DNA of 64,000 bases from Methanobacteriota archaeon (GTDB lineage Archaea > Thermoplasmatota > Poseidoniia > Poseidoniales > Thalassarchaeaceae): the NCBI GenBank assembly GCA_028355015.1, contig JAOMRN010000001.1, positions 129,229 to 193,228 on the forward strand, in the 5' to 3' direction. The translations under genes were made by a program, and so were the position numbers. The notes under the pieces are model-generated. The model did no database searches and had not been told where the DNA came from. It was given only the letters and a program-made list of their open reading frames with translations. Shown one piece after another: positions 40,717 to 53,718 of the stretch (positions are counted from its first letter, which is position 1; each line of letters begins with the position of its first letter).

Positions 40717-41244
40717 ATGGATGAGACAAAAATAAATTTAGATATTGAAACACAGACTTTTCGTTTTACTTCATCTAAACCAATTAATCAAGATGAAGCA
40801 GTTAGTCTAGCGAATGGTGTCTTATCTGGAGAATATGTAGTTATAATTCATGAAAATCCACATGCAACACTAGTAATAGAGCCCGAAGGTTCTGTTTTAG
40901 TGCATGGAATCTCAAGAAGTGAAGTTGCCCGCCTCGCGGTCCAAGAATTACTGCTGACATTAGGGATGTCAGATGAATGGTTAATTGTAGATTCGGGAGA
41001 AATGATTATCCGTTTCTCAATAGGTAGAGCAGTATTGATGGATTTAGCGGCAGATAGGTTTTCTGAGATCAATTATGATACTCGAATTGGAGCCTTAAGA
41101 ATAAATGCAGAAAGGCATAAGTGTACAATTTTATTATTCAATAACGGCCATGGTGTGATTCTCAAACAAACATCCAAGAGAATTGCTGAAATGGCAATAA
41201 GATATTGGTCATCACAATTAGACGATGAAGGCGCATTGGCGTGA
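40717..41244 (+). CDS. Divergent two-repeat TBP-fold (TATA-binding-protein-like) protein
   Basis: 175 aa. Two internal repeats end in 'ATLVIEPEGSVLVHGISRSEVARLAVQELL' and 'CTILLFNNGHGVILKQTSKRIAEMAIRYW'. These resemble the 'LLIFSSGK.V.TGAKS......A' strand-helix units of TBP. Confidence 0.4.
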   Translation: MDETKINLDIETQTFRFTSSKPINQDEAVSLANGVLSGEYVVIIHENPHATLVIEPEGSVLVHGISRSEVARLAVQELLLTLGMSDEWLIVDSGEMIIRFSIGRAVLMDLAADRFSEINYDTRIGALRINAERHKCTILLFNNGHGVILKQTSKRIAEMAIRYWSSQLDDEGALA

Positions 41245-45135: not shown

Positions 45136-45293
45136 TTCTAATTCAAACTTTCCTCAACAATCTAGTATTCGCTTTCCTATATCAATTTTCCAATTCTTTC
45201 TATAAATCACTATCCTCAAAATCGTTTGGCTCTATTGTAAAAAGTGCTTTGATAAACTTCCAAAACATCTTACTCACTCCTTTCTCCCATTTT

Positions 45294-45962
45294 TTACCAC
45301 TCCTTTGTTCGAAACTTCCCCAATGTTCCATAGGTAATACTTTCTGATCTTGGGAAAGGAATTATGACGTTTTTCTCCATATTAATTCTTCTTAGATTTT
45401 GTATAATCCATTGGCAACCGAATGAAGCTGCATTGATGAAACCGAATTGAATATTTCCTGAATCTACTGCACCTTCATATTGACAAGATCCTGGCTTTTG
45501 ATTTTTATCTGTTACTTTATCTATTTCTAAATTTGTAACTGTGTTGTCAATAGCCATGAAATTATCTCCTCTACATCTCAGATCTACCCATCTACAATCT
45601 GTTGAATGAACGACCATTCTAGCTTCTGATGAATCTACGCAAACAACTATCAAGTCATTATCAACAATTTCTTGCTTATTTCTAACATCTTTGGCATGAG
45701 GAATTATTTCTAATCTTCCATTTTCAAAACATTTCAAATTCCTATAAGTTGCATTAACTTTCTTCTCACCTATGTTCGAAGGAAAAAATCTCTGATGAAA
45801 TATATTACTTTCTTCTACTTCATCCGAGTCATACAGATTAATTTTAATATTTTCAAATTTTGTTGCTAAGTCTCCTTGAGACAAAGATGGTATCAATAAT
45901 GCAGCTACATTTGAACCAATCCCACCGACCCCTATTATTGCTATACTTAATGCATGATTCAT
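45294..45962 (-). CDS. ThiF/MoeB/E1-like adenylyltransferase (minimal, 222 aa)
   Basis: It has the Rossmann loop 'IAIIGVGGIGSNVAALL' (45903-45938), then 'LYDSDEVEESNIFHQRFF', 'GEKKV' and 'DLIVVCVDSSEARMVV'. This is the canonical order of E1-superfamily motifs. The start overlaps the E2 stop as ATGA, and a GGAGGA Shine-Dalgarno sequence lies upstream. Confidence 0.8.
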   Translation of the reverse strand: MNHALSIAIIGVGGIGSNVAALLIPSLSQGDLATKFENIKINLYDSDEVEESNIFHQRFFPSNIGEKKVNATYRNLKCFENGRLEIIPHAKDVRNKQEIVDNDLIVVCVDSSEARMVVHSTDCRWVDLRCRGDNFMAIDNTVTNLEIDKVTDKNQKPGSCQYEGAVDSGNIQFGFINAASFGCQWIIQNLRRINMEKNVIIPFPRSESITYGTLGKFRTKEW

Positions 45963-46723
45963 TGAAAATCCTCCAAATTAGAAAATACATTTTCATATAA
46001 TTTCATCTGTGTTGTTTTTTGTGATTCTTCCCAATAACTCCAATCATTACTTATGTTTTTTAATATCAAATCTCTCTTATTTGCAAATGAAAATTCACTA
46101 TCAGTTTTATCCAATTCGATTAACCATTCACTATATTGACTTATTTTATTAAAATCTATACCTTCCGAATTATTACCTTGAAACCAACTAATTATAATTC
46201 CTTTAATCATAGCTGTTCTCAAAGTCCTCATGTTCCTATCAAGTACTGAAGTCATATCTTCAGACAAACAATTCATTACAGAAACAATATGATCACCGGA
46301 CCAAAAAAGATGGTTTACAGAAGTTTTTACATCTAAGCAAATATGCTGCCAGCGCCCCTCTGAATGATCATACCAATGTGTTTCGAAATGAATTAATTTT
46401 TGAAATGTGAATAAGATTGATTTTAGATTTCTGTGACTCAACTCAACTTTTTGAATTCTTTTAGATAATAGATTTGCAATTCTTGATTCGAAAGATAATG
46501 TTAATCTATAATTAATTCCAGATTCTCTGCCATTTATGAAAATATGACATTTTCTACTTGAGTCGTATCCATCATCTATCGTGCAATCAATCGCTGCTCC
46601 AATTCTTTTCCTCTCAGATTCAATCCATTCTAGTGATTTATTGTGTGCATCTAAATTAGGGGTAATATATCTAAAAATTCCATTCTTTCTCTCTGGTGTA
46701 TATTCTTCTTCATTTCCTATCAC
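45959..46723 (-). CDS. UBC-like E2 ubiquitin-conjugating-enzyme homolog
   Basis: 254 aa. 'KLIHFETHWYDHSEGRWQHICLDVKTSVNHLFWSGDHIVSVMNCL' parallels the eukaryotic E2 core 'F.T.I.HPNI...G.ICLDIL...WSPA..I..VL.SI'. The candidate catalytic Cys129 codon is at 46337-46339. The start is GTG with GGAGGTG 5 nt upstream. Confidence 0.65.
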   Translation of the reverse strand: MIGNEEEYTPERKNGIFRYITPNLDAHNKSLEWIESERKRIGAAIDCTIDDGYDSSRKCHIFINGRESGINYRLTLSFESRIANLLSKRIQKVELSHRNLKSILFTFQKLIHFETHWYDHSEGRWQHICLDVKTSVNHLFWSGDHIVSVMNCLSEDMTSVLDRNMRTLRTAMIKGIIISWFQGNNSEGIDFNKISQYSEWLIELDKTDSEFSFANKRDLILKNISNDWSYWEESQKTTQMKLYENVFSNLEDFQ

Positions 46724-46948
46724 TCAAACACCTCCTAAATTTTCGATTTTTTCTTCTTCCTCTAACACAAGAGCACGATATGCTGTAACTCCTGTCAAAA
46801 TTTCTCTTATCTTAATCAATATCGATAAGTTTCTTTCAATATAATTCGTTAATGATAAAATAGTATCTGGATCTAAATTATGTCCGTTATTTTCTATTAT
46901 CTGTATGATTAATTGTATATCATCTTTCATAGACAAATCTTCAATCAC
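46724..46948 (-). CDS. Small acidic protein of unknown function inside the Ubl operon
   Basis: 74 aa. The start is GTG with a GGAGGTGA Shine-Dalgarno sequence 6 nt upstream. It overlaps the JAB stop by 1 nt and abuts the E2 start. Confidence 0.5.
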   Translation of the reverse strand: MIEDLSMKDDIQLIIQIIENNGHNLDPDTILSLTNYIERNLSILIKIREILTGVTAYRALVLEEEEKIENLGGV

Positions 46949-47451
46949 TATTCATCACCTCCTAGATTATGATTAAGAATCCCATAATAGACCATTTTAG
47001 CTAATTTTGATTTGACATTATATGCCAGATATTCATTATGTCCTAATACGATGCATGAATTCATCACAGATTTCCATGCATTAATTGTCATCCAATCTCT
47101 TTCGCTGAAATATGCTCTTCCTGAAGGGTGAGTATGGATACAACATTTAATTGGTAATTGCATTTTATTACCATTAGTCAATTCATCTTCATGATTTATG
47201 AATGATACCAAAGAAGATGTCCCACTGCTAATGTATAAATCATCTTTATCATCAATAATAACCATCACTTCTATTTCATCTAGTTCGTCTACAGACGTTT
47301 TCCATATTGCTGTCATAAAGACTTCAGTGGAATTGTTAGGGAAGAGATATTCTATATCATCCGCCATATCATTATGTACATCTCGTATATGCTGCTTCCA
47401 ATCTACTTCATTTTCTATTATATTTTTATTTTTTATTTGTTTTATTTTCAT
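46948..47451 (-). CDS. JAB/MPN (JAMM) metallopeptidase
   Basis: 167 aa. 'HTHPSGRAYFSERD' (47095-47136) is an exact HxHx7Sx2D JAMM zinc motif. An AAGGAG Shine-Dalgarno sequence lies upstream of the ATG. Confidence 0.85.
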   Translation of the reverse strand: MKIKQIKNKNIIENEVDWKQHIRDVHNDMADDIEYLFPNNSTEVFMTAIWKTSVDELDEIEVMVIIDDKDDLYISSGTSSLVSFINHEDELTNGNKMQLPIKCCIHTHPSGRAYFSERDWMTINAWKSVMNSCIVLGHNEYLAYNVKSKLAKMVYYGILNHNLGGDE

Positions 47452-47544: not shown

Positions 47545-47754
47545 TCAACCGAACACAATACGTGGCATCACTCTCACGGTTCCAACTGTAGACCAATCTG
47601 CTTCAGCCAATTCTCCTGGCTCAATCATCTGTCCTCCAGCGAAAACCCAACGCTCATTGTCAGACACGAGATCAACAGTCTCTCTCTGAGTCAATAAAGC
47701 GATGGTGTGCCCCGTATGGTCAGCAATTTCGACTTTTGTCGTTATGTTTTCCAT
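47545..47754 (-). CDS. Ubiquitin-like beta-grasp protein (ThiS/MoaD-like) ending in a free C-terminal Gly
   Basis: 69 aa. The tail '...GTVRVMPRIVFG*' resembles the '..GD.V.I.PPV.GG' tails of ThiS/MoaD. The terminal Gly codon at 47548-47550 is followed directly by TGA. A GGAGGT Shine-Dalgarno sequence lies 7 nt upstream of the ATG. Genomic linkage to E1/E2/JAB supports the call. Confidence 0.6.
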   Translation of the reverse strand: MENITTKVEIADHTGHTIALLTQRETVDLVSDNERWVFAGGQMIEPGELAEADWSTVGTVRVMPRIVFG

Positions 47755-47846: not shown

Positions 47847-47963
47847 CTATTCCCAGTCTTGAGCTACAAATGCGCCACCAATCATTCCAGTGATTGGTGC
47901 ACAAGTCATTGTGCCCACGACCAAACCAACAGTTCCGCCTACGATCGCTTTTAGCAATCCCAT
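47847..47963 (-). CDS. Glycine-zipper hydrophobic micro-protein A (38 aa), unannotated in the ORF track
   Basis: My translation is MGLLKAIVGGTVGLVVGTMTCAPITGMIGGAFVAQDWE*. The ATG is at 47963-47961, with an AAGGAG Shine-Dalgarno sequence at 47975-47980 (minus-strand sense). It is preceded by a conserved leader repeat. Confidence 0.6.
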   Translation of the reverse strand: MGLLKAIVGGTVGLVVGTMTCAPITGMIGGAFVAQDWE

Positions 47964-47974
47964 AACATATCACG

Positions 47975-48080
47975 CTCCTTGTTTGTGTCGTCTCTGTGCC
48001 CGAGACACGAGCCCTGTTTCCTTTCTAACAGGAAGTCATCGCATTTGCGAATAGAGTGTGTTCGGTCACTCGTCACATCC
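47975..48080 (-). repeat. Leader repeat copy 1 (upstream of micro-protein A)
   Basis: It shares with copy 2 the blocks CTCCTTGT, CTGTGCCCGA, CCCTGTTTCCTTTC.AACAGGAAGTCATCG..TTTGCGAA and ACTCGTCA.AT (plus-strand reading). It contains the hairpin CCTGTT(48013-48018)/AACAGG(48027-48032). Confidence 0.8.
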
Positions 48081-48191
48081 GCCGTCATATCCGTCTATGC
48101 CGTCCCAGTTTCCTGCAAGCAGAATTGGGATTGCTAGCGGTCCAACAACGACCGCTGCAGTGCCTGCAGCTATCCATCTCAATATTCCTAT
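48066..48191 (-). CDS. Glycine-zipper hydrophobic micro-protein B (41 aa), paralog of A, with ATA at the position of A's ATG
   Basis: Translation (I/M)GILRWIAAGTAAVVVGPLAIPILLAGNWDGIDGYDGGCDE* aligns residue for residue with peptide A over the first ~18 aa. AAGGAGGTG lies upstream. The aligned start codon is ATA (48191-48189), and an in-frame TTG lies at 48182-48180. Confidence 0.45.
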   Translation of the reverse strand: MGILRWIAAGTAAVVVGPLAIPILLAGNWDGIDGYDGGCDE

Positions 48192-48199
48192 ATTTTCAC

Positions 48200-48307
48200 C
48201 TCCTTGTGTTATTTCACTTCTGTGCCCGAAGTTCAGGCCCTGTTTCCTTTCCAACAGGAAGTCATCGTGTTTGCGAAAAAAATCACGTCCGATTACTCGT
48301 CATATTT
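48200..48307 (-). repeat. Leader repeat copy 2 (upstream of micro-protein B)
   Basis: The same conserved blocks are offset by 225-227 nt from copy 1. The hairpin arms are identical and the loop differs by one base. Confidence 0.8.
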
Positions 48308-48405
48308 TCTATGTCATTCTGATTATCATCCGGAAAGAAATCCACTAGATTCTCTCCAGCAATTGCTAAGTATGCTAAACGCCATAAAAACTCTTTAATT
48401 CTCAT
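48283..48405 (-). CDS. Possible third micro-ORF (40 aa) overlapping the stop of the membrane-protein gene
   Basis: Translation is MRIKEFLWRLAYLAIAGENLVDFFPDDNQNDIENMTSNRT*. Its 3' end occupies the same position in leader copy 2 that the 3' end of peptide B occupies in leader copy 1. Confidence 0.25.
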   Translation of the reverse strand: MRIKEFLWRLAYLAIAGENLVDFFPDDNQNDIENMTSNRT

Positions 48406-49534
48406 TATGTTCTACCTCATCCTCAACCCAGACAGGGCGATTCATCCATACGAATACGATCAAAATCGTTGCTAATCCAATTACAATAAATGTCGAAAAT
48501 ATTGTACCATCAACAATCCACGCTACTGCTAGAATTGGATTTGAAAATAATCTGCCTTGATTTCTCGAGTATTCTCTAGGGCATCCTTCTAAATTTAATT
48601 TTTCAAACCCCCATTCAACTTCTTTTTTGAGAATCGGGAATAACACGGCTGTACCTCCGGTTATCATTACGATTCCAAAGAACCATGTAGACTCAAATAA
48701 CAACATCAACGCTGAAATAAAGGTTATAATCAAACCAATATTCACAAGAAATCTATCTTCAATTATACGCTCTAATATCCCCGGTACAGCAGCTCCTATC
48801 AATGTAGAGATAGCGATAATTCCTCCAAGCGAAATTATCTCGGGTTGGTCTGAAATCGCTATAGTACCGGTAAGAATAATCACAAGTCGAGAAATAGATA
48901 CACTGTTGTTTAGAAATCCCTCAAGGAACGCCAAGATGGCTGGATACTGAAAAGTATCGACCCACCTAAGATGATTTTTTGCTCTAGTTTCTTTTCCGTC
49001 AGAAATTATATCTTCTTCTCTTGAGATAATTATTAATGCGAATAAAAGGAAACTCAAAGACAGGATCAATAGCAGCCCAGAACCTAACCATTCAACAAAG
49101 AAAGCCGCAGCCATAATCAAGATTATTCCACTTGCTTTCTCAAAGCAATTCCAGAGCTTAAAATTCATATCTGATTGGTGCTGGAGTTTGTAGAAAGCTG
49201 GCCAAAACGAGCCCACATAGAATCCTGAGAAGACGCCTCCACAGAGAATAAAGATCAATTCTTCAAACTGCCATGCACAAATGAAAAATAAGAAAGAAAT
49301 AACTCGTAATTTCACCGAATTACTGATTATATTCCAATTGAAATTAATATTAGAAGCATTCAACAACCCTGATGTTGCAGTAGCCGCAATCAACATTGTA
49401 ATATTTAGAGCAAGCAGTCCTATATCTCCACTTATTTCGTAAGCTAATTTGTACCCCCCTATCGTCCAACCTGCCTTCTCTGCCGCCTGTATAAGCCATC
49501 TAATCCCATATATCTTGATTTTTCTATTATTCAT
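48395..49534 (-). CDS. Polytopic membrane protein (transporter-like, about 10-12 TM helices)
   Basis: 379 aa, almost entirely hydrophobic helices with one central charged loop ('SREEDIISDGKETRAKNH'). This gives an MFS-like two-halves layout, judged from topology only. Confidence 0.45.
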   Translation of the reverse strand: MNNRKIKIYGIRWLIQAAEKAGWTIGGYKLAYEISGDIGLLALNITMLIAATATSGLLNASNINFNWNIISNSVKLRVISFLFFICAWQFEELIFILCGGVFSGFYVGSFWPAFYKLQHQSDMNFKLWNCFEKASGIILIMAAAFFVEWLGSGLLLILSLSFLLFALIIISREEDIISDGKETRAKNHLRWVDTFQYPAILAFLEGFLNNSVSISRLVIILTGTIAISDQPEIISLGGIIAISTLIGAAVPGILERIIEDRFLVNIGLIITFISALMLLFESTWFFGIVMITGGTAVLFPILKKEVEWGFEKLNLEGCPREYSRNQGRLFSNPILAVAWIVDGTIFSTFIVIGLATILIVFVWMNRPVWVEDEVEHNEN

Positions 49535-49535
49535 T

Positions 49536-49760
49536 TCTTCACCTTTTTATTGTATCTATTATGTCATACCTAAATTTATTTTTACACGAAAATAAAACTT
49601 TTTTTCTTATCTTATCTATTATGTAATACCTTAGTTTTTGAAATCTCCGAAGAGAGAATCCTTCTTAAGTCTTTTATTATGTCATACCTAAATTTATTTT
49701 TTAATAATTGATATATTTTTTTCTTTTCATATCTAATATGTATTACCTTTTAATTAAAGT
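49536..49760 (+). repeat. Four direct ~59-bp tandem repeat units in the divergent intergenic region
   Basis: Core (T)ATCTATTATGT(C/A)ATACCT(A/T)A.TTT starts at 49557, 49617, 49675 and 49734 (spacings 60, 58 and 59). Units 1 and 3 share the identical stretch ATTATGTCATACCTAAATTTATTTTT. Each core is preceded by a T-rich/CTT tract. Confidence 0.85.
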
Positions 49761-49767
49761 TATAAAT
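49760..49767 (+). promoter_or_regulatory. Candidate archaeal TATA box for the RNA polymerase gene
   Basis: TTATAAAT is centred about 30 nt upstream of the ATG at 49795, with no Shine-Dalgarno sequence. This geometry fits a (near-)leaderless archaeal transcript. Confidence 0.3.
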
Positions 49768-49794
49768 CAGATATCTTTCCCAGAAAATGTTAGT

Positions 49795-52700
49795 ATGGAT
49801 AAATCAGAAGAAATTACCACCAAAGTCGTAGTTGATAACGATGAAGTCAGTATCAGTAATCTCATTCAGCTCCTTTCACTAGAAATTGCTAAAGGCACAG
49901 AAGAAAATGATTCATATAAAGGGGGCATTACTCAACAAGATATTGAAGCGTTCAAGCAGGAATTTTCTTCTAGTCAGAGATTTGACCTACATCTCATAAG
50001 ATCTTGGATAAAGACCTTGAAACAACACCAAAATAAAGAATCAGAAGTCTCTAGACGCGAATATTTCAATAATAATTATGAATCATCACTAGGGAAATTG
50101 TATGAATTACCTGAAAAAGAACCTGAAAAATCTTGGTATGATTGGCATATTCATGAAGGGCATAAACTTGGTTATCAACTAGAAGATTTGATGCACCTGA
50201 AATCTGATCTAAGGATTCTACGCCCCAAAAATGATTATTTATTTAAAGTCGCTCTTCAATCCCGAGTAGAAAAAATGGCGGAAGGAAATAGCTCAATTAA
50301 GATATTAGATGGTGATGTACGAAGGCGTGAACAATCGCAATCTGATGACACATCAAGGAAACTTATAACTTCTTTTTCAAAATCATTCAATAATGTGTTT
50401 TCAAATAAGATGGATAAATATGTTGTTCATAGTAACGGAACATCGAATACTTATTGTAACCTATCTATAAAAACCATAGAAGAAATCATTCAAACTTCAG
50501 ATGAAGAGGGGTTATTTGAGAAGATATCAAAAGTATGTGTCCGATTACTAATTAAGGAATCTAGAGAAAAAGAGAGAAAGTCAAGATGGGACAGAAAAAT
50601 GAAAAAGAAGACTGAGGGATATACTAAATATACGGATATATGCCTTATTGAGAAAAACTTTATCATAGGATTGTCGGAATATATCGAAGATAAATTAAAC
50701 AAAGGGTTTCAAAACAAAAAAGAAAGCCTTCAAGAAGATGGAAGATGGATTGGATTGATAAATGCTGACCAAATAAAATTGAATAATACCTTTCTACGCG
50801 CCTCGAGGATTTTTTCACAATTAATAATAGCAGCATTAAATTCTGAGGGATGGATTCAAAGAAGGGCGGGTACATATAATGATTTTTTGTTACATTTACC
50901 AGTCGATGATGATGACAAAGAATCAAAAAATAAGGTGTCAGGACAACATAGAAATATGATGTCTTTTTCTGATAAATTGAAAAAAGAAGTTGCCCCTTGT
51001 GAACTTAGAGATTTTAAAACACGAGAAGAAAATGCAATATTTAGAGTATTAAGGAATGACACGCATAGATACATGTATTGCTGCCCTAGTGATCATAAAA
51101 TTAGTCCTGAGAAAACATCGGGTGGCTACATCAATACAGATTCTAAATCCGGTAGCTCTGTTGGGCTTACTGTTACTAAAGAAAAAAAGATTAGTAAGAT
51201 TACTAATAAATCCTCTCTCTTTTCTTGTAGTAAAAAAAGGTTCGAATATAATAATGAATCTCTCAGAGCATTAAATATTCTTCAAAAAACACAATGGGAA
51301 ATAAATTATGATTTATTGCAGTTTATATCTCTATCAATTGATACTGAGCTTCAGGGTACCTCTTATGCGGATATTCAATTAAAAGAAATATTTAGAAAAT
51401 CATTCTATTATGATGAAGAAATTGAAAACATAAGAGATAGAGATAGACGTAGGTTTGAGAATATAGAGAGGCGTAAACGTTTAACATATATTGGAAGAAT
51501 CTTGAGTCATAATGCCAATGTATTTTGGCATTCATGGGCCTTTGATTGGCGAGGAAGATTAATTGCCAGAGCTCCCATTTTAAGTCCACAAAAATCAGAC
51601 ATCGATCGTTCACTGATTCGATTTAAGGAATGGAAAGAATTAGGCATTAATGGATGGAAATGGTTCAGGATATTTTTATTCAATTTTTGTAAAGAAGATC
51701 CTTATTGGCTCGATGACCAACCGTCAAAATCATTTTCTAAAGATGAAAAATGCAAATGGATTGATAGGAATAAATTAAGAATCAAATCATTAATTAATAA
51801 TATTGATGACCCTAAGGTAATCGCATATCTCGATTTAAATAAATCTCCAATGCCTAAATCTGAAACTTTTCAGAGAATTTCTGTATTGCTTGAATATAAA
51901 AGAATATTAGATGAATACAATGATAAAAAAGATTGGTCCAAAGTTACCTCTGGGCATCCAATTCACTTCGATGCTTCTTCAAATGGCTATCAGCATCTCT
52001 CTCTTCTAATAAATAATAAGCAATTAGCAAAAAAAGTTAACGTTTTACCGAATGAAGTAAAGAATGATATCTATCAAGAAGTTGCAGATCAAGCGATAGA
52101 GAATTGGGATAATAATCAAAGTAAACTTAAAAAATATTTATTAGAAAACTTCAACGAATTAGATAATGAACAGCTTAATTCTATCAAAAATTCTGTTTTT
52201 AATAGAAATTTAGCTAAATTACCTACTATGACTTCTATTTATGGTGCTAAAGACTATGAAAGTTGTTTCATTGGAAGTAACGGAAAAGGAAAACCTAAAT
52301 TTATCAAATCAGGAAAAGTTTGGGTTTGTTGCTGGCATGAAGATTCTCCAATATATCAGAATTTAAGTAAATTAAATAACATAAAATTTTTAGGTCCCAA
52401 TGGATATTTTTCTGAAGATAAGTTTGTTTCTCCAGATAAGAAAGTTTTGAGGCAAAATATATTTGTTGAAAATTTGATTACAGATTATAAAAAATCAATT
52501 GAAGAAGTCACAGGCGGTGCATATGAGCAATTGACTCAGAAATTAAAAAAACTTGTTAATAAAGGCAAAAAACCAGATATCAGTTGGAAACTAGATGATG
52601 GTTCCCAGATTTGGCATTATTATCCAGCGAAGCAAGTAGTTACTAATTATGATTCAACTTCATCTCTAAAATTACTTATCGATACAGATGCTCTGAATTT

Positions 52701-53718
52701 TTCACCGAAGAATAGGGTTGATATTTTACATAAATTAAATGAGTTATCGCACATTTACCCTATGTGTAAGATCGATGATAAATTTATTGAAGAAGCAATA
52801 ATGAATTACAATAAATGGGTTGGAAATGACGAAGATTTTTTTGGAAAGAAAATTGTTGAACTTAATAATAACCTATACATTGGAGAACCTACTTCTTCTA
52901 AATCTAAGTTGCCATGGAAGATTTTATCTCTAAGGTCAGAGGATATAATTTCATTAAAGGAAGTAGATATAAAATTAGAGAAAATCTATAAAAAAATTGG
53001 TAATACAAAAAAACCAGTAAAAAATGAAAAAAAGAAAAAAGAGAAGAAGATTCTACTTAAAAAGTTAGTAAATGAGCAGAGAAAATTAAAAGAAGAAAAA
53101 AAAGAATTAGAGAAATTAATTGATGAAGAACAAACTGATAGCGAGAAAGCGGAGTTAGAATTCCAACGCAGTAATGAAATTCATAATTATTGGGCGGCTA
53201 TATATTATCTCTTCAAAATGTACCCCAAATCTTCATCACAAGATTTACTCAGAGCTATAGAACAACATATGATTCGTAAATTAGAAGATTCCGATGATGA
53301 ATTTATCAAAGCCTGTAAAATGGCGTTTAATATATCGACTAAATGTAATTTCATTGATTATGATGGTAGGGCAGATAAAAGAAGAATTTTATCTGGAATT
53401 TCCCCTAATTTCATACATTCTCTAGATGCTTATCATATGAGATCTTCAATTATTAAATTTTCTGAATCTGTTAAAAACCCATCAATTTGGGCTGTTCATG
53501 ATTCCTTTGGAACACATGCCTGTGATATAGGAAGTTATATTGAAGTAATCAAAGAAATGTTTTTGGGAATGCATAAAGAAAAAGATTTGAACAAATGGTG
53601 TGAAGAAATATCAAAAGAAAATGGCATTGAAGTCAAAGAAGATTCAATTGGGGATCCAGATTTTCGTAACGAGTTAATTAATGGAGAAATTCAGATATCT
53701 GATTTTTTCTTAAGTTGA
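49795..53718 (+). CDS. T7/T3/mitochondrial-type single-subunit DNA-dependent RNA polymerase (about 1307 aa)
   Basis: 'WAFDWRGRL' (DWRGR at 51544-51558) matches T7 'DWRGRVY'. 'IHFDASSNGYQHLS' is motif A, with the Asp codon at 51970-51972 (T7 'DGSCSGIQHFS'). 'LAKLPTMTSIYGA' is motif B, with Lys at 52216 and Tyr at 52240 (T7 'TKRSVMTLAYGS'). 'SPNFIHSLDAYHMR' (53401-53442) matches T7 'APNFVHSQDGSHLR'. 'WAVHDSFGTH' is motif C, with Asp at 53500-53502. The C-terminal 'SDFFLS*' resembles T7 'DFAFA' and mitochondrial 'YFFS'. I prefer the ATG at 49795 over the TTG at 49708. Confidence 0.9.
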   Translation: MDKSEEITTKVVVDNDEVSISNLIQLLSLEIAKGTEENDSYKGGITQQDIEAFKQEFSSSQRFDLHLIRSWIKTLKQHQNKESEVSRREYFNNNYESSLGKLYELPEKEPEKSWYDWHIHEGHKLGYQLEDLMHLKSDLRILRPKNDYLFKVALQSRVEKMAEGNSSIKILDGDVRRREQSQSDDTSRKLITSFSKSFNNVFSNKMDKYVVHSNGTSNTYCNLSIKTIEEIIQTSDEEGLFEKISKVCVRLLIKESREKERKSRWDRKMKKKTEGYTKYTDICLIEKNFIIGLSEYIEDKLNKGFQNKKESLQEDGRWIGLINADQIKLNNTFLRASRIFSQLIIAALNSEGWIQRRAGTYNDFLLHLPVDDDDKESKNKVSGQHRNMMSFSDKLKKEVAPCELRDFKTREENAIFRVLRNDTHRYMYCCPSDHKISPEKTSGGYINTDSKSGSSVGLTVTKEKKISKITNKSSLFSCSKKRFEYNNESLRALNILQKTQWEINYDLLQFISLSIDTELQGTSYADIQLKEIFRKSFYYDEEIENIRDRDRRRFENIERRKRLTYIGRILSHNANVFWHSWAFDWRGRLIARAPILSPQKSDIDRSLIRFKEWKELGINGWKWFRIFLFNFCKEDPYWLDDQPSKSFSKDEKCKWIDRNKLRIKSLINNIDDPKVIAYLDLNKSPMPKSETFQRISVLLEYKRILDEYNDKKDWSKVTSGHPIHFDASSNGYQHLSLLINNKQLAKKVNVLPNEVKNDIYQEVADQAIENWDNNQSKLKKYLLENFNELDNEQLNSIKNSVFNRNLAKLPTMTSIYGAKDYESCFIGSNGKGKPKFIKSGKVWVCCWHEDSPIYQNLSKLNNIKFLGPNGYFSEDKFVSPDKKVLRQNIFVENLITDYKKSIEEVTGGAYEQLTQKLKKLVNKGKKPDISWKLDDGSQIWHYYPAKQVVTNYDSTSSLKLLIDTDALNFSPKNRVDILHKLNELSHIYPMCKIDDKFIEEAIMNYNKWVGNDEDFFGKKIVELNNNLYIGEPTSSKSKLPWKILSLRSEDIISLKEVDIKLEKIYKKIGNTKKPVKNEKKKKEKKILLKKLVNEQRKLKEEKKELEKLIDEEQTDSEKAELEFQRSNEIHNYWAAIYYLFKMYPKSSSQDLLRAIEQHMIRKLEDSDDEFIKACKMAFNISTKCNFIDYDGRADKRRILSGISPNFIHSLDAYHMRSSIIKFSESVKNPSIWAVHDSFGTHACDIGSYIEVIKEMFLGMHKEKDLNKWCEEISKENGIEVKEDSIGDPDFRNELINGEIQISDFFLS

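Follow-up and report, generated by a model that had tools for sequence, protein, structure and literature searches.

Genes and features at the locus

The window, i.e. the whole 64,000-nucleotide stretch of Poseidoniales DNA analysed in this study, carries on its minus strand a compact set of genes around the one coding for protein X, the subject of this work. The genes of this locus and their associated features are as follows.

45294..45962, minus strand: minimal ThiF-type E1-like adenylating enzyme, 222 aa (PF00899 ThiF, E 3.1e-12)
45483..45485, minus strand: codon of Cys160 of the E1 (in G-S-C-Q), candidate E1 thioester cysteine from sequence alignment
45959..46723, minus strand: protein X, 254 aa (ORF and translation), from an orphan family in which one Cys is invariant, and a candidate for the E2-equivalent carrier of a Ubl
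46724..46948, minus strand: 74-aa protein ending ...NLGGV, an ORF between JAB and X
46948..47451, minus strand: JAB/JAMM metallopeptidase, 167 aa (E59 ... H106-T-H-x7-S-x2-D119; Prok-JAB, E 8.8e-5)
47545..47754, minus strand: candidate for the Ubl-like modifier, 69 aa, ending ...RIVFG (codon of Gly69, 47548-47550)
47847..47963, minus strand: 38-aa glycine-rich membrane peptide (MGLLKAIVGGTVGLVVG...AQDWE, from translation), which travels with the operon
47993..48051, minus strand: copy 1 of a 59-nt repeat (direct-repeat family D1), containing a hairpin (CCTGTT/AACAGG) and located upstream of the gene for the 38-aa peptide
48066..48200, minus strand: second small membrane peptide (...AGNWDGIDGYDGGCDE; ORF, start codon uncertain), with homologues in loci L013, L019, and L023
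48219..48277, minus strand: copy 2 of the 59-nt repeat, sharing 85% identity with copy 1 and located upstream of the gene for the second peptide

A previous sequence-only reading of this DNA had proposed an E2-like gene at 45959-46723. We found that this ORF is real, lying on the minus strand and encoding 254 aa, and that the 43-residue segment quoted as E2-like corresponds to aa 111-153 of X, with the Cys129 codon where that reading had placed it. The gene starts with GTG, with the Shine-Dalgarno sequence AGGAGGTG located 7 nt upstream, and its stop codon and the start codon of the E1 gene overlap (ATGA), indicating translational coupling. Because a protein family search also identified homologues of X in 48 clusters, X can be regarded as the product of a genuine gene. 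Forty-two members of the family, down to ~18% identity, were aligned, and this alignment (A2) was used for the conservation analyses below. A genome scan for the close family of X found two Poseidoniales/Thermoplasmatota MAGs, and no match to X was found by tblastn among 50,697 phage genomes. Of the roughly 100 extra residues previously ascribed to the two termini of X, part turned out to be clade-specific, since many distant homologues end ~20-40 residues sooner, and the N-terminal extensions of other homologues differ in kind.

Operon partners of X

ThiF lies directly after X, overlapping it or a few bases apart, in nine loci representing eight protein clusters, including X proteins as little as ~19% identical to that of the window. 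The top NCBIfam match of the E1 is PRTRC_ThiF (TIGR03736; 2.1e-16), which, at 60 bits versus a cutoff of 144.75, is below cutoff. Judged by sequence, PRTRC ThiF is the closest annotated relative of the E1, which is not itself an equivalog member. Consistent with this, all six matches in a plasmid tblastn search with the E1 were PRTRC ThiF proteins, and the operon E1 and PRTRC ThiF have adenylation motifs in common. The dipeptide S159-C160 is invariant across seven operon E1s and four PRTRC ThiF proteins. Among PADLOC models, those of Cap2 match the E1 region weakly (5.9e-7).

The JAB protein scores 22.8 bits against the Prok-JAB cutoff of 25 and is therefore sub-threshold, with its motif intact at 47095-47136. 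JAB was found in every locus with enough sequence, and its position varies, being after ThiF in distant loci, so that it is the composition of the operon, and not merely the gene order, that is conserved.

The 69-aa protein, like JAB a constant companion of X, has an invariant terminal Gly, and its homologue in L018 ends ...VGGY, i.e. in the GG+1 form. Furthermore, P0186, P0194, and P0055 carry this domain as an N-terminal fusion to X (hhalign 97.9%, E 5.7e-13; BLASTP 2e-10), with LVGG exactly at the fusion junction. No match to this protein was found in Pfam or PDB, its hhalign comparison with Prok_Ub was not significant, and that with ThiS was weak (E 0.017, probability 2.7%). The 74-aa protein, which from its sequence is probably helical, is kept in L001 and L013, where it ends LGGV, and an unrelated 101-aa protein takes its place in L019. 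In L022 and L023, the gene next after JAB encodes a 79-87 aa protein ending QLFG. The 74-aa protein was also considered as the modifier but rejected as the main candidate, being clade-specific; the 69-aa protein, in contrast, is conserved and occurs fused to X.

The 38-aa membrane peptide is near-identical in L013 and L019, although X there is only 29% identical. Two copies of the 59-nt repeat are also present in L005-L007, and an Rfam search of the operon region gave no real match for the repeat. The operon is set in an AT-rich island, and its distribution is patchy.

Conserved residues of X

The conserved positions of X are encoded as follows.

46256..46294, minus strand: codons of D144 (46292-46294), L153 (46265-46267), and D156 (46256-46258), each conserved 42/42
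46337..46339, minus strand: codon of Cys129, candidate catalytic (thioester) cysteine of X
46634..46645, minus strand: H27-N28-x-S30 motif, where helix 1 begins, nearly invariant (H 35/38, N 37/38, S 38/38)

The conservation of Cys129 among homologues had been set beforehand as a test of its proposed catalytic role, and Cys129 was present in 42/42 members of A2, down to ~18% identity. No other cysteine is invariant in the family; neither Cys152 nor Cys59 is conserved in the same 42 proteins, and both were thereby ruled out as the catalytic cysteine. D144, L153, and D156 sit in and around the helix that follows the Cys loop, within a W-P-G-D motif and an L-x-x-D motif, and T-L-R 167-169 are further conserved residues, unlike those of canonical UBC proteins. 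Three members of the family have F or W in place of H27, a residue that is therefore unlikely to be catalytic.

Two other details of the E2-like motif did not hold across the family. The sequence HWYDH, which had been taken as a substitute for the HPN triad, has poorly conserved histidines (H116 in 13/42 and H120 in 7/42) and was rejected as such a substitute; H127 is likewise poorly conserved (15/42), and only D119 (33/42), W117 (25/42), and Y118 (24/42) of this region are moderately conserved; no conserved HPN-like motif was found ~8-10 residues before Cys129 in the 42 aligned proteins. Likewise, the match to a W-S element is peculiar to the window sequence, as the consensus of the family reads W-P-G-D and P occurs in 31/42. 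The absence of HPN weighs little by itself, since HPN is also missing from some prokaryotic E2 families (Iyer, Burroughs and Aravind 2006).

Sequence and profile comparison of X with the UBC/E2 family

Despite the description of the segment around Cys129 as a UBC signature, no E2 model matched X, and all the profile-profile comparisons with E2 families were non-significant. X had no match in Pfam, NCBIfam, PADLOC, or PDB-sequence searches. UQ_con and Prok-E2_A to E matched neither X nor any of the 42 family members (Pfam, E <= 0.1), for which the complete Pfam scan returned scattered noise only, and the 42-member profile found nothing among PDB sequences at E <= 10. With hhalign, the probability was 0.19% for the X family against a 28-sequence Prok-E2_D profile, below 1% against single PRTRC-B sequences, and 0.14% against a UBC profile, or 0.06-0.07% when secondary structure was included; a forced global alignment brought no improvement. 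The UBC profile consisted of nine sequences and was validated by its recovery of 316 PDB E2 sequences. A search with the diverse A2 profile found no bridge sequences bearing an E2 domain.

The alignment of the E2 active site proposed from sequence inspection is also the best local one that hhalign finds between the X family and UBC, but it stands at chance level (E = 0.42-0.64, probability ~0.1%). It covers the HFETHWYDHSEGRWQHICLDVKTS region of X, ungapped and with 33% identity, and superposes C129 on Cys85 of UBE2D2/UbcH5B. The best local match against Prok-E2_D likewise places C129 on the catalytic Cys. This placement is expected anyway, because an invariant Cys in both profiles anchors the local alignment. 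Taken by itself, the motif match is thus at the level of chance, and the kinship of X with the E2 family is not confirmed by sequence comparison.

Predicted fold of X

An AF2 model of X built from the 42-sequence alignment reached a pLDDT of 89.4 and a pTM of 0.82; an earlier model from a shallow 19-sequence alignment (pLDDT 43) was unusable and was discarded. The predicted order of elements is alpha-beta-beta-beta-(alpha-alpha insert)-beta-beta-Cys-alpha-alpha-alpha, which is compatible with UBC. In the model, Cys129 lies in the loop directly after strand 124-128, ~10 residues past strand 4 and ~13 residues before the next helix. A helical hairpin of ~27 residues is inserted between strands 3 and 4, and ~70 extra helical residues follow at the C-terminus.

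A Foldseek search of this model against PDB found nothing at E <= 0.001. Among the top 50 weak matches, 26 were canonical E2s aligned over their full length, with TM 0.29-0.43, rmsd 8-10 A, and probability <= 0.2; this count amounts to about a single observation, because E2s are heavily over-represented in PDB. Rad50 fragments were level with the E2s by E-value. The best structural matches came from BFVD, where only unnamed or uncharacterised viral proteins were found, among them A0A516LSW3 and A0A516M0H5, the top two being unnamed viral proteins with probability ~1.0 and E 0.016-0.057. On this model, the fold of X is probably a heavily altered version of UBC that carries the helical insertion and additional helices at the C-terminus; neither the sequence nor the structure searches demonstrated membership of X in the UBC family.

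Functional interpretation of X

The strongest evidence for X as an E2-like enzyme is its operon context. Since Cys129 alone is invariant among the cysteines, and since X occupies the slot that E2s take in prokaryotic Ubl operons, between JAB and a ThiF-type E1 with a Gly-ended small protein encoded upstream, X can be read as an E2-like enzyme, and a thioester-carrying enzyme of this kind is the best-supported functional reading. We therefore consider it fairly probable that X is the E2-equivalent thioester carrier of a compact ubiquitin-like conjugation module of Poseidoniales (Marine Group II), comprising a Gly-ended Ubl-like protein, JAB, X itself, and a minimal ThiF-type E1.

However, E1, JAB, and a small GG protein also occur together in sulfur-carrier pathways, so that the context alone does not force a role in conjugation. 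In such a pathway, the small Gly-ended protein would be a ThiS/MoaD-type carrier, adenylated by the ThiF-like enzyme and trimmed by JAB, and Cys129 of X would act as a persulfide or sulfur relay to make a thiocarboxylate, either for a sulfur-containing metabolite or for the co-encoded Cys-containing peptides. JAB trims the C-terminus of the sulfur carrier in the CysO/Mec+ and QbsE/QbsD systems, and the JAB gene together with a GG+1 precursor agrees with this kind of processing. The single-domain architecture of the E1 and its strong NCBIfam similarity to ThiF/MoeB adenylyltransferases point in the same direction, as do the weak C-terminal match of the modifier, which is to ThiS, and the failure of Pfam and hhalign to demonstrate E2 homology of X. 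Against these stand the lack of any gene for a cysteine synthase, thiazole/MoCo enzyme, rhodanese, or cysteine desulfurase in the operon or its conserved flanks at any locus, the absence of a match between X and any sulfurtransferase family or fold, and the identity of the nearest annotated relatives of the E1, which are PRTRC E1s, partners of an E2-family protein. On balance, a sulfur-carrier pathway seems unlikely to us.

Given that the predicted fold of X has no significant PDB match and that its top structural matches are unnamed viral proteins, X might instead be a Cys-dependent hydrolase or transferase unrelated to E2, such as an additional peptidase for deconjugation or processing, an E3-like enzyme, or one that recognises targets, and Cys129 could form a Cys-His-Asp set with the near-invariant H27 and the invariant D144 and D156. 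The F or W found in place of H27 speaks against this set, X matches no peptidase family or fold, and the operon already encodes a peptidase in JAB; moreover, no carrier from E1 to target would be left, unlike in every related four-part operon. We regard such an enzyme as distinctly improbable. The chance-level score of the motif would also be expected if its E2-like appearance were accidental and X were a structural or adaptor protein with a structural Cys129, for instance one binding metal or forming a disulfide. Here, the lone invariant Cys lacks a conserved partner set of Cys or His, which argues against metal or disulfide, and the obligate coupling of X to E1, JAB, and modifier, including gene fusion, argues for a role in an enzymatic pathway, making this last explanation very improbable.

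If X is the E2-equivalent carrier, the following mechanism can be envisaged, in which every step is inferred and the operon anatomy alone is observed. JAB would cleave after Gly in a modifier precursor, such as the GG+Tyr form of L018 or the X-fused form of the P0186 clade, whereas the modifier of the window already terminates in Gly69. The E1 would then adenylate Gly69 and be loaded with the modifier at Cys160, from which transthioesterification would transfer it to Cys129 of X. X itself may hand the modifier on to an amine of the target, no separate E3 being involved, with the invariant D144 and D156 as candidates to position or deprotonate the acceptor, and JAB might reverse the modification.

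An accessory system of the conflict or defence type, and not a housekeeping one, is suggested by how patchily the operon occurs, by its setting in an AT-rich island, and by the small membrane peptides that travel with it. It is tempting, albeit doubtful, to speculate further that X founds an unrecognised class of Ubl carriers, either as an extremely diverged UBC protein or through an independent, non-UBC origin of the E2 role, and that the archaeal module acts on the co-travelling glycine-rich membrane peptides, for example by arming, disarming, or tagging pore-forming effectors of an antiviral or toxin-type system.

Poseidoniales dominate the archaeal plankton of the surface ocean, and our literature search found no description of such an operon in this group. 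Prokaryotic Ubl/E1/E2/JAB operons are central to the debate on the origin of ubiquitination, and recent work has shown that they act against viruses in bacteria. The protein in the E2 position, the modifier, and the accessory genes receive no annotation from any standard library. Should X indeed be an E2, the E2 superfamily reaches well past the detection of current models and includes a new chromosomal archaeal branch, tied via its E1 to bacterial PRTRC/6d; if its fold is not UBC, X would provide an analogous solution for the chemistry of the E2 step. The operon is small, with four or five genes, includes a natural fusion of modifier and enzyme, and offers testable residues in X (C129, D144, and D156), in the E1 (C160), and in the modifier (G69).

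Comparison with known systems

Compared with UBC/E2 proteins such as UBE2D2/UbcH5B, X has in its predicted model a compatible order of elements, with the Cys loop after strand 4 and ~13 residues before a helix. Unlike them, it lacks HPN and a significant profile or fold match, and its invariant residues are different.

Among archaeal systems, those of Caldiarchaeum subterraneum and Asgard archaea and the haloarchaeal SAMP/UbaA system carry out Ubl modification and, like the present operon, encode an E1 together with a JAMM peptidase. In Caldiarchaeum and Asgard archaea, the Ub, UBC E2, and RING E3 proteins are recognisable and eukaryote-like, and, to our knowledge, SAMPylation involves no E2 at all. 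In contrast, the operon described here has a protein in the E2 position that is missed by every E2 model tried, and no E3.

Type II CBASS Cap2/Cap3 follows the same logic of E1, E2, and JAB, and the weak PADLOC match of the E1 region was to Cap2. However, in Cap2 the E2 and E1 are fused and act on a CD-NTase, which they conjugate, whereas the operon E1 and X are separate proteins; no CD-NTase was found near the operon, and X itself had no PADLOC match of any kind.

Bil (BilABCD) is an antiviral four-gene Ubl/E2/JAB-DUB/E1 operon without an E3, in which the DUB pre-processes a Ubl bearing residues past Gly and the E2 has been proposed to pick its own targets (PMC10557695). The archaeal operon, judged from its genes alone, has the same four-gene plan without an E3. 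The Bil E1 combines inactive and active adenylation domains with a separate CYS domain (PMC10557695), whereas the operon E1 is a 222-aa single ThiF domain. In addition, superposition of the Bil E2 on UBE2D2 gives 3.2 A, and its Cys...His is conserved (PMC10557695), while X shows no demonstrable superposition and lacks that His.

The PRTRC set consists of Prok_Ub, Prok-E2_D, Prok-JAB, and ThiF, with an E2 of ~220-250 aa just upstream of ThiF, and corresponds to operon type 6d (Iyer, Burroughs and Aravind 2006). Genuine PRTRC proteins match the Prok-E2_D, Prok_Ub, and DUF2016 plus Prok-JAB models at 1e-17 to 1e-51, whereas X has no Prok-E2_D match (negative in Pfam, hhalign probability 0.2%), the modifier has no Prok_Ub match, and JAB lacks the DUF2016 N-terminal domain. 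X also lacks the conserved His downstream of Cys found in 6d, and no genes for ParB or for PRTRC protein E- or F-like proteins were found near the operon. Furthermore, the operon is archaeal and chromosomal, in contrast to the bacterial plasmid or ICE location of PRTRC/6d, and is associated with small membrane peptides. Despite these differences, the two share a ~70-aa modifier, a Cys protein of ~220-250 aa just upstream of a small ThiF-type E1, a JAB, and one extra small protein, which in 6d is helical, and the operon E1 is nearest to PRTRC ThiF, with motifs and the invariant S-C in common.

Gene and operon structure

The open reading frame at 45959-46723 is confirmed; it lies on the minus strand and encodes 254 amino acids (hereafter X), with a GTG start codon and the Shine-Dalgarno sequence AGGAGGTG 7 nt upstream. 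The segment in which the sequence-only reading had seen a UBC-fold E2 signature is residues 111-153, and the codon of its candidate catalytic cysteine, Cys129, is at 46337-46339, both exactly as claimed. X is the fourth member of a tight minus-strand operon, where the genes for a JAB/JAMM peptidase (JAB), a 74-aa protein, X and a ThiF-type protein (E1) are contiguous.

Genes of the operon containing X
Operon 5' end, minus: genes for two small membrane peptides rich in glycine, each with a copy of a 59-nt repeat in front
47754-47545, minus: ORF, 69-aa protein ending ...RIVFG (candidate Ubl-like modifier)
47451-46948, minus: JAB/JAMM protein, 167 aa; intact E...HTHx7SxxD motif; Prok-JAB E 8.8e-5
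46948-46724, minus: ORF, 74-aa protein ending ...NLGGV
46723-45959, minus: ORF, X
45962-45294, minus: ThiF-family E1-like protein, 222 aa; PF00899 E 3.1e-12

The last four genes are contiguous or overlapping (junctions taGTG, tgaGTG, ATGA), and each is preceded by a GGAGG-type ribosome-binding site. From E1 through X to JAB the G+C content is 30-33%, lower than in the flanking DNA (38-41%) and in the whole window (37%), which also encodes PCNA and a TBP-like protein. Near-identical operons were found on contigs of Thermoplasmatota and Candidatus Poseidoniales MAGs, which places the host among the Marine Group II archaea.

Residue conservation in the X family

X has no match in Pfam (including UQ_con and Prok-E2_A to E), PADLOC, NCBIfam or PDB sequences. 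A word-indexed search recovered only 18 close relatives (59-98% identity), all from marine metagenomes, and since about one fifth of the columns are invariant in this set, conservation of the cysteine there says little. An exhaustive HMMER search of 1.8 billion representatives with the close-relative profile gave 48 X-family clusters. In the resulting 42-sequence alignment, which reaches down to ~18% identity to the query, only C129, D144, L153 and D156 are invariant. As Cys129 is one of only four such columns in so divergent a family, its conservation among homologues is convincingly established. C152 and C59 are not conserved in this alignment and were rejected as catalytic candidates. Near-invariant positions are S30 (38/38), N28 (37/38), H27 (35/38) and Y72 (39/40), together with R169 (41/42), L168 (39/42), W125 (38/42) and T167 (38/42). 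None of the 42 members matched E2 models, the family profile found nothing among PDB sequences at E <= 10, and a search with the diverse X profile found no bridge sequences carrying any Pfam domain.

Three X homologues of 371-395 aa (P0046, P0048 and P0053) are extended at the N-terminus by about 130-190 residues with many cysteine pairs of the CxxC type, e.g. CSWCHM...HEC...CSCCIYCEM and CEEGAPCEYC. The extension has no Pfam match; judging from its cysteine pattern it may be a zinc-binding module, and could serve target recognition or an E3-like role.

Predicted fold and comparison with UBC

The AF2 model of X had a pLDDT of 43 with a shallow alignment, and a pLDDT of 89.4 and pTM of 0.82 with the 42-sequence alignment. 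It comprises helix 25-41, strands 44-46, 56-64 and 71-79, helices 80-92 and 97-106, strands 111-119 and 124-128 followed by Cys129 and a loop, and then helices 142-154(-159), 166-181 and 191-206 and two further helices. The order of elements in the model is that of UBC (helix 1, strands 1-4, Cys loop, helices 2-4), except that a helical hairpin separates strands 3 and 4 and further helices extend the C-terminus, and the spacings around Cys129 are near those in UbcH5B. A Foldseek search of the model against PDB returned nothing at E <= 0.001, with Rad50 fragments giving the best E-values (E 0.1, TM ~0.2). Canonical E2s, aligned full-length, made up 26 of the top 50 matches (target-normalised TM 0.29-0.43, rmsd 8-10 A, probability <= 0.2), which amounts to roughly a single weak observation because E2s are heavily over-represented in PDB. 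In BFVD the best matches were two unnamed viral proteins, A0A516LSW3 (416 aa) and A0A516M0H5 (441 aa), with probability 0.99-1.0, E 0.016-0.057, TMq 0.33-0.36 and 161-175 aligned columns.

For profile comparison we used a Prok-E2_D profile of 28 sequences from annotated PRTRC protein B genes and a UBC profile of 9 sequences, the latter validated in that it retrieved 316 distinct E2 sequences from PDB at E < 1e-10. With hhalign the X family reached a probability of 0.19% against Prok-E2_D and 0.14% against UBC, and adding secondary structure gave no gain over plain profiles. The sole local alignment each time (E 0.3-0.6) matched strand 111-119 with strand 4 and C129 with the catalytic Cys, the same alignment as in the sequence-only reading; it weighs little, since each of the two profiles has an invariant Cys and this would anchor any best match. 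The signature argument is therefore insufficient alone and partly wrong in detail, as the profile matches are non-significant and two of its elements are unconserved: the histidines of 'HWYDH', proposed as a replacement for HPN, are kept in only 13/42, 7/42 and 15/42 members, and the 'W-S' match is confined to the window's X, the family motif being W-P-G-D. By the criteria for the UBC superfamily, X falls short in sequence, combines a compatible order of predicted elements with no significant structural match in PDB, and has the candidate catalytic Cys and the E1/Ubl association.

Conserved partners of X

A ThiF gene lies directly 3' of X, overlapping or within a few bases, at nine loci representing eight protein clusters, and this pairing spans 98% down to ~19% identity in X; one further contig was too short to judge. 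At one locus (L022), X is followed by a ThiF that lacks its N-terminal part. The best NCBIfam match of the window's E1 is PRTRC_ThiF (2.1e-16, under the curated cutoff), and all six of its tblastn matches among 72,556 plasmids are annotated PRTRC ThiF. The operon E1s and PRTRC ThiFs have in common the GxGGxG loop, the DxDxV...N...Q motif and an invariant S159-C160. Immediately 3' of the E1 gene, a 50-aa CxxC...CxxC (zinc-ribbon-like) ORF (L013 9424-9576; L005 7432-7587) overlaps or abuts the E1 end in some clades, and a different tiny ORF is found in the window and L001.

A JAMM-motif protein was found in every X locus with enough sequence, before X in the window's clade and after ThiF in other clades; the composition of the operon is conserved, not merely its gene order. 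The 69-aa candidate modifier is also conserved, and its C-terminal Gly is invariant, the L018 protein ending ...VGGY, one residue past the Gly. In the clade of P0186, P0194 (labelled by NCBI an uncharacterised protein of a Methanobacteriota/Euryarchaeota archaeon MAG) and P0055, the small protein is joined to the N-terminus of X: residues 1-70 of the fusion match the free protein end to end (hhalign 97.9%, E 5.7e-13; BLASTP 2e-10), the conserved Gly lies inside LVGG immediately before the X domain, and ThiF and JAB come after. This arrangement has precedent, since Ubl fusions to (inactive) E2-like domains were noted in type 6e operons (Iyer et al.).

The 74-aa protein ending ...NLGGV (46724-46948, minus), between JAB and X in the window's clade, looks helical by inspection, and a protein of 79-87 aa with the ending ...SQLFG comes after JAB in the fusion clade (L022 3038-3301; L023 3627-3866). 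Either might act as a second modifier or a substrate, or might correspond to the 'novel alpha-helical protein' described for type 6d operons.

Flanking genes and repeats

Tiny ORFs near the operon encode glycine-zipper-like hydrophobic peptides (47847-47963, ~48066-48200 and 45200-45268, all minus) with acidic tails (...AQDWE, ...GIDGYDGGCDE, ...DTCDE, ...SEWED, ...NDFEDSDL). They stay with the operon, also in L013, L019 and L023, even at 21-29% identity in X, and could act as effectors, targets or toxins in this system. The two copies of the 59-nt element (47993-48051 and 48219-48277, minus-strand sense) are 85% identical and 226 nt apart, each about 30-40 nt upstream of a peptide gene, and two copies also occur in L005-L007. 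The element contains a CCTGTT-loop-AACAGG hairpin with folding z-scores of only -1.7 to -2.0, has no match in Rfam, and may be a cis-regulatory leader. Immediately upstream of the small-peptide genes, the window's clade conserves a 333-379 aa multi-pass membrane protein with no Pfam match (window 48395-49534, minus; L001 1064-2203; L005 3514-4515), possibly part of the Ubl operon unit, e.g. for peptide export or immunity.

Divergent to the adjoining operon, in an archaeal chromosomal context, lies an AT-rich (28-32% G+C) gene for a 1336-aa single-subunit T7/mitochondrial-type RNA polymerase (49708-53718, plus; PF00940 E 4.7e-41), only ~26% identical to phage RNAPs. A homologue with a SAP domain lies beside the operon in L005 (1-3213), a SAP-domain protein adjoins it in L018, and L001 and L013 have different 607-673 aa genes at this place. 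A literature search found no paper naming both single-subunit RNAPs and Marine Group II. The TBP-like protein of the window (40717-41244, plus; 175 aa) has a single recognisable TBP repeat (PF00352, E 3.7e-7, residues 108-166), and the short gene is kept beside TatD and an unannotated 265-aa gene in L003.

Proposed function

The best available reading of X is the functional guess made from the sequence alone: X is probably an E2-like enzyme that carries the modifier as a thioester. The operon context provides the strong evidence for such a role. From the observed parts list, invariant residues, coupling and fusion we infer the following steps. JAB would free the C-terminal Gly of the modifier where needed; E1 would adenylate this Gly and then hold the modifier on Cys160; X would take it onto Cys129 and pass it to a target without an E3, with D144 and D156, in or after the W-P-G-D helix, as candidates for handling the acceptor amine; and JAB would undo the modification.

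ThiS/MoaD-like carriers with ThiF and JAMM trimming are known chemistry, and the small protein, whose only weak match is ThiS, might belong to such a sulfur-carrier pathway. However, the operon is not accompanied by any biosynthetic or sulfurtransferase gene, and the closest annotated relatives of E1 partner with E2. X could also be a Cys-dependent hydrolase or other enzyme, with H27, C129 and D144/D156 making a catalytic set, but three family members have F or W at H27 and the operon already has a peptidase in JAB. That X is a structural protein with a chance E2-like motif is contradicted by the lone invariant Cys of the family and by the obligate coupling of X to E1, JAB and the modifier.

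That the system is accessory and of a conflict type is indicated by its place in an AT-rich island with variable flanks, by its narrow, patchy distribution (48 clusters in 1.8 billion representatives) and by the membrane peptides that travel with it.

Comparison with known systems

Our literature searches turned up neither a description of a ubiquitin-like operon from Poseidoniales nor any functional work on PRTRC, which matches type 6d among the operons of Iyer et al. PRTRC comprises Prok_Ub (protein C), Prok-E2_D (protein B, 220-250 aa), DUF2016 with Prok-JAB (protein A) and ThiF; the gene for B comes just before that for ThiF, or before those for A and ThiF. The window's module falls outside curated PRTRC, having an E1 under the cutoff and no Prok-E2_D, Prok_Ub or DUF2016; outside Bil, its E1 being single-domain; and outside Cap2, having neither the fusion nor a CD-NTase. 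The protein in the putative E2 position and the candidate modifier are recognised by no current model. In its proposed function the module is like the PRTRC/6d and Bil operons, and we regard it as a system of known type that occurs here in a new lineage and has new accessory components.
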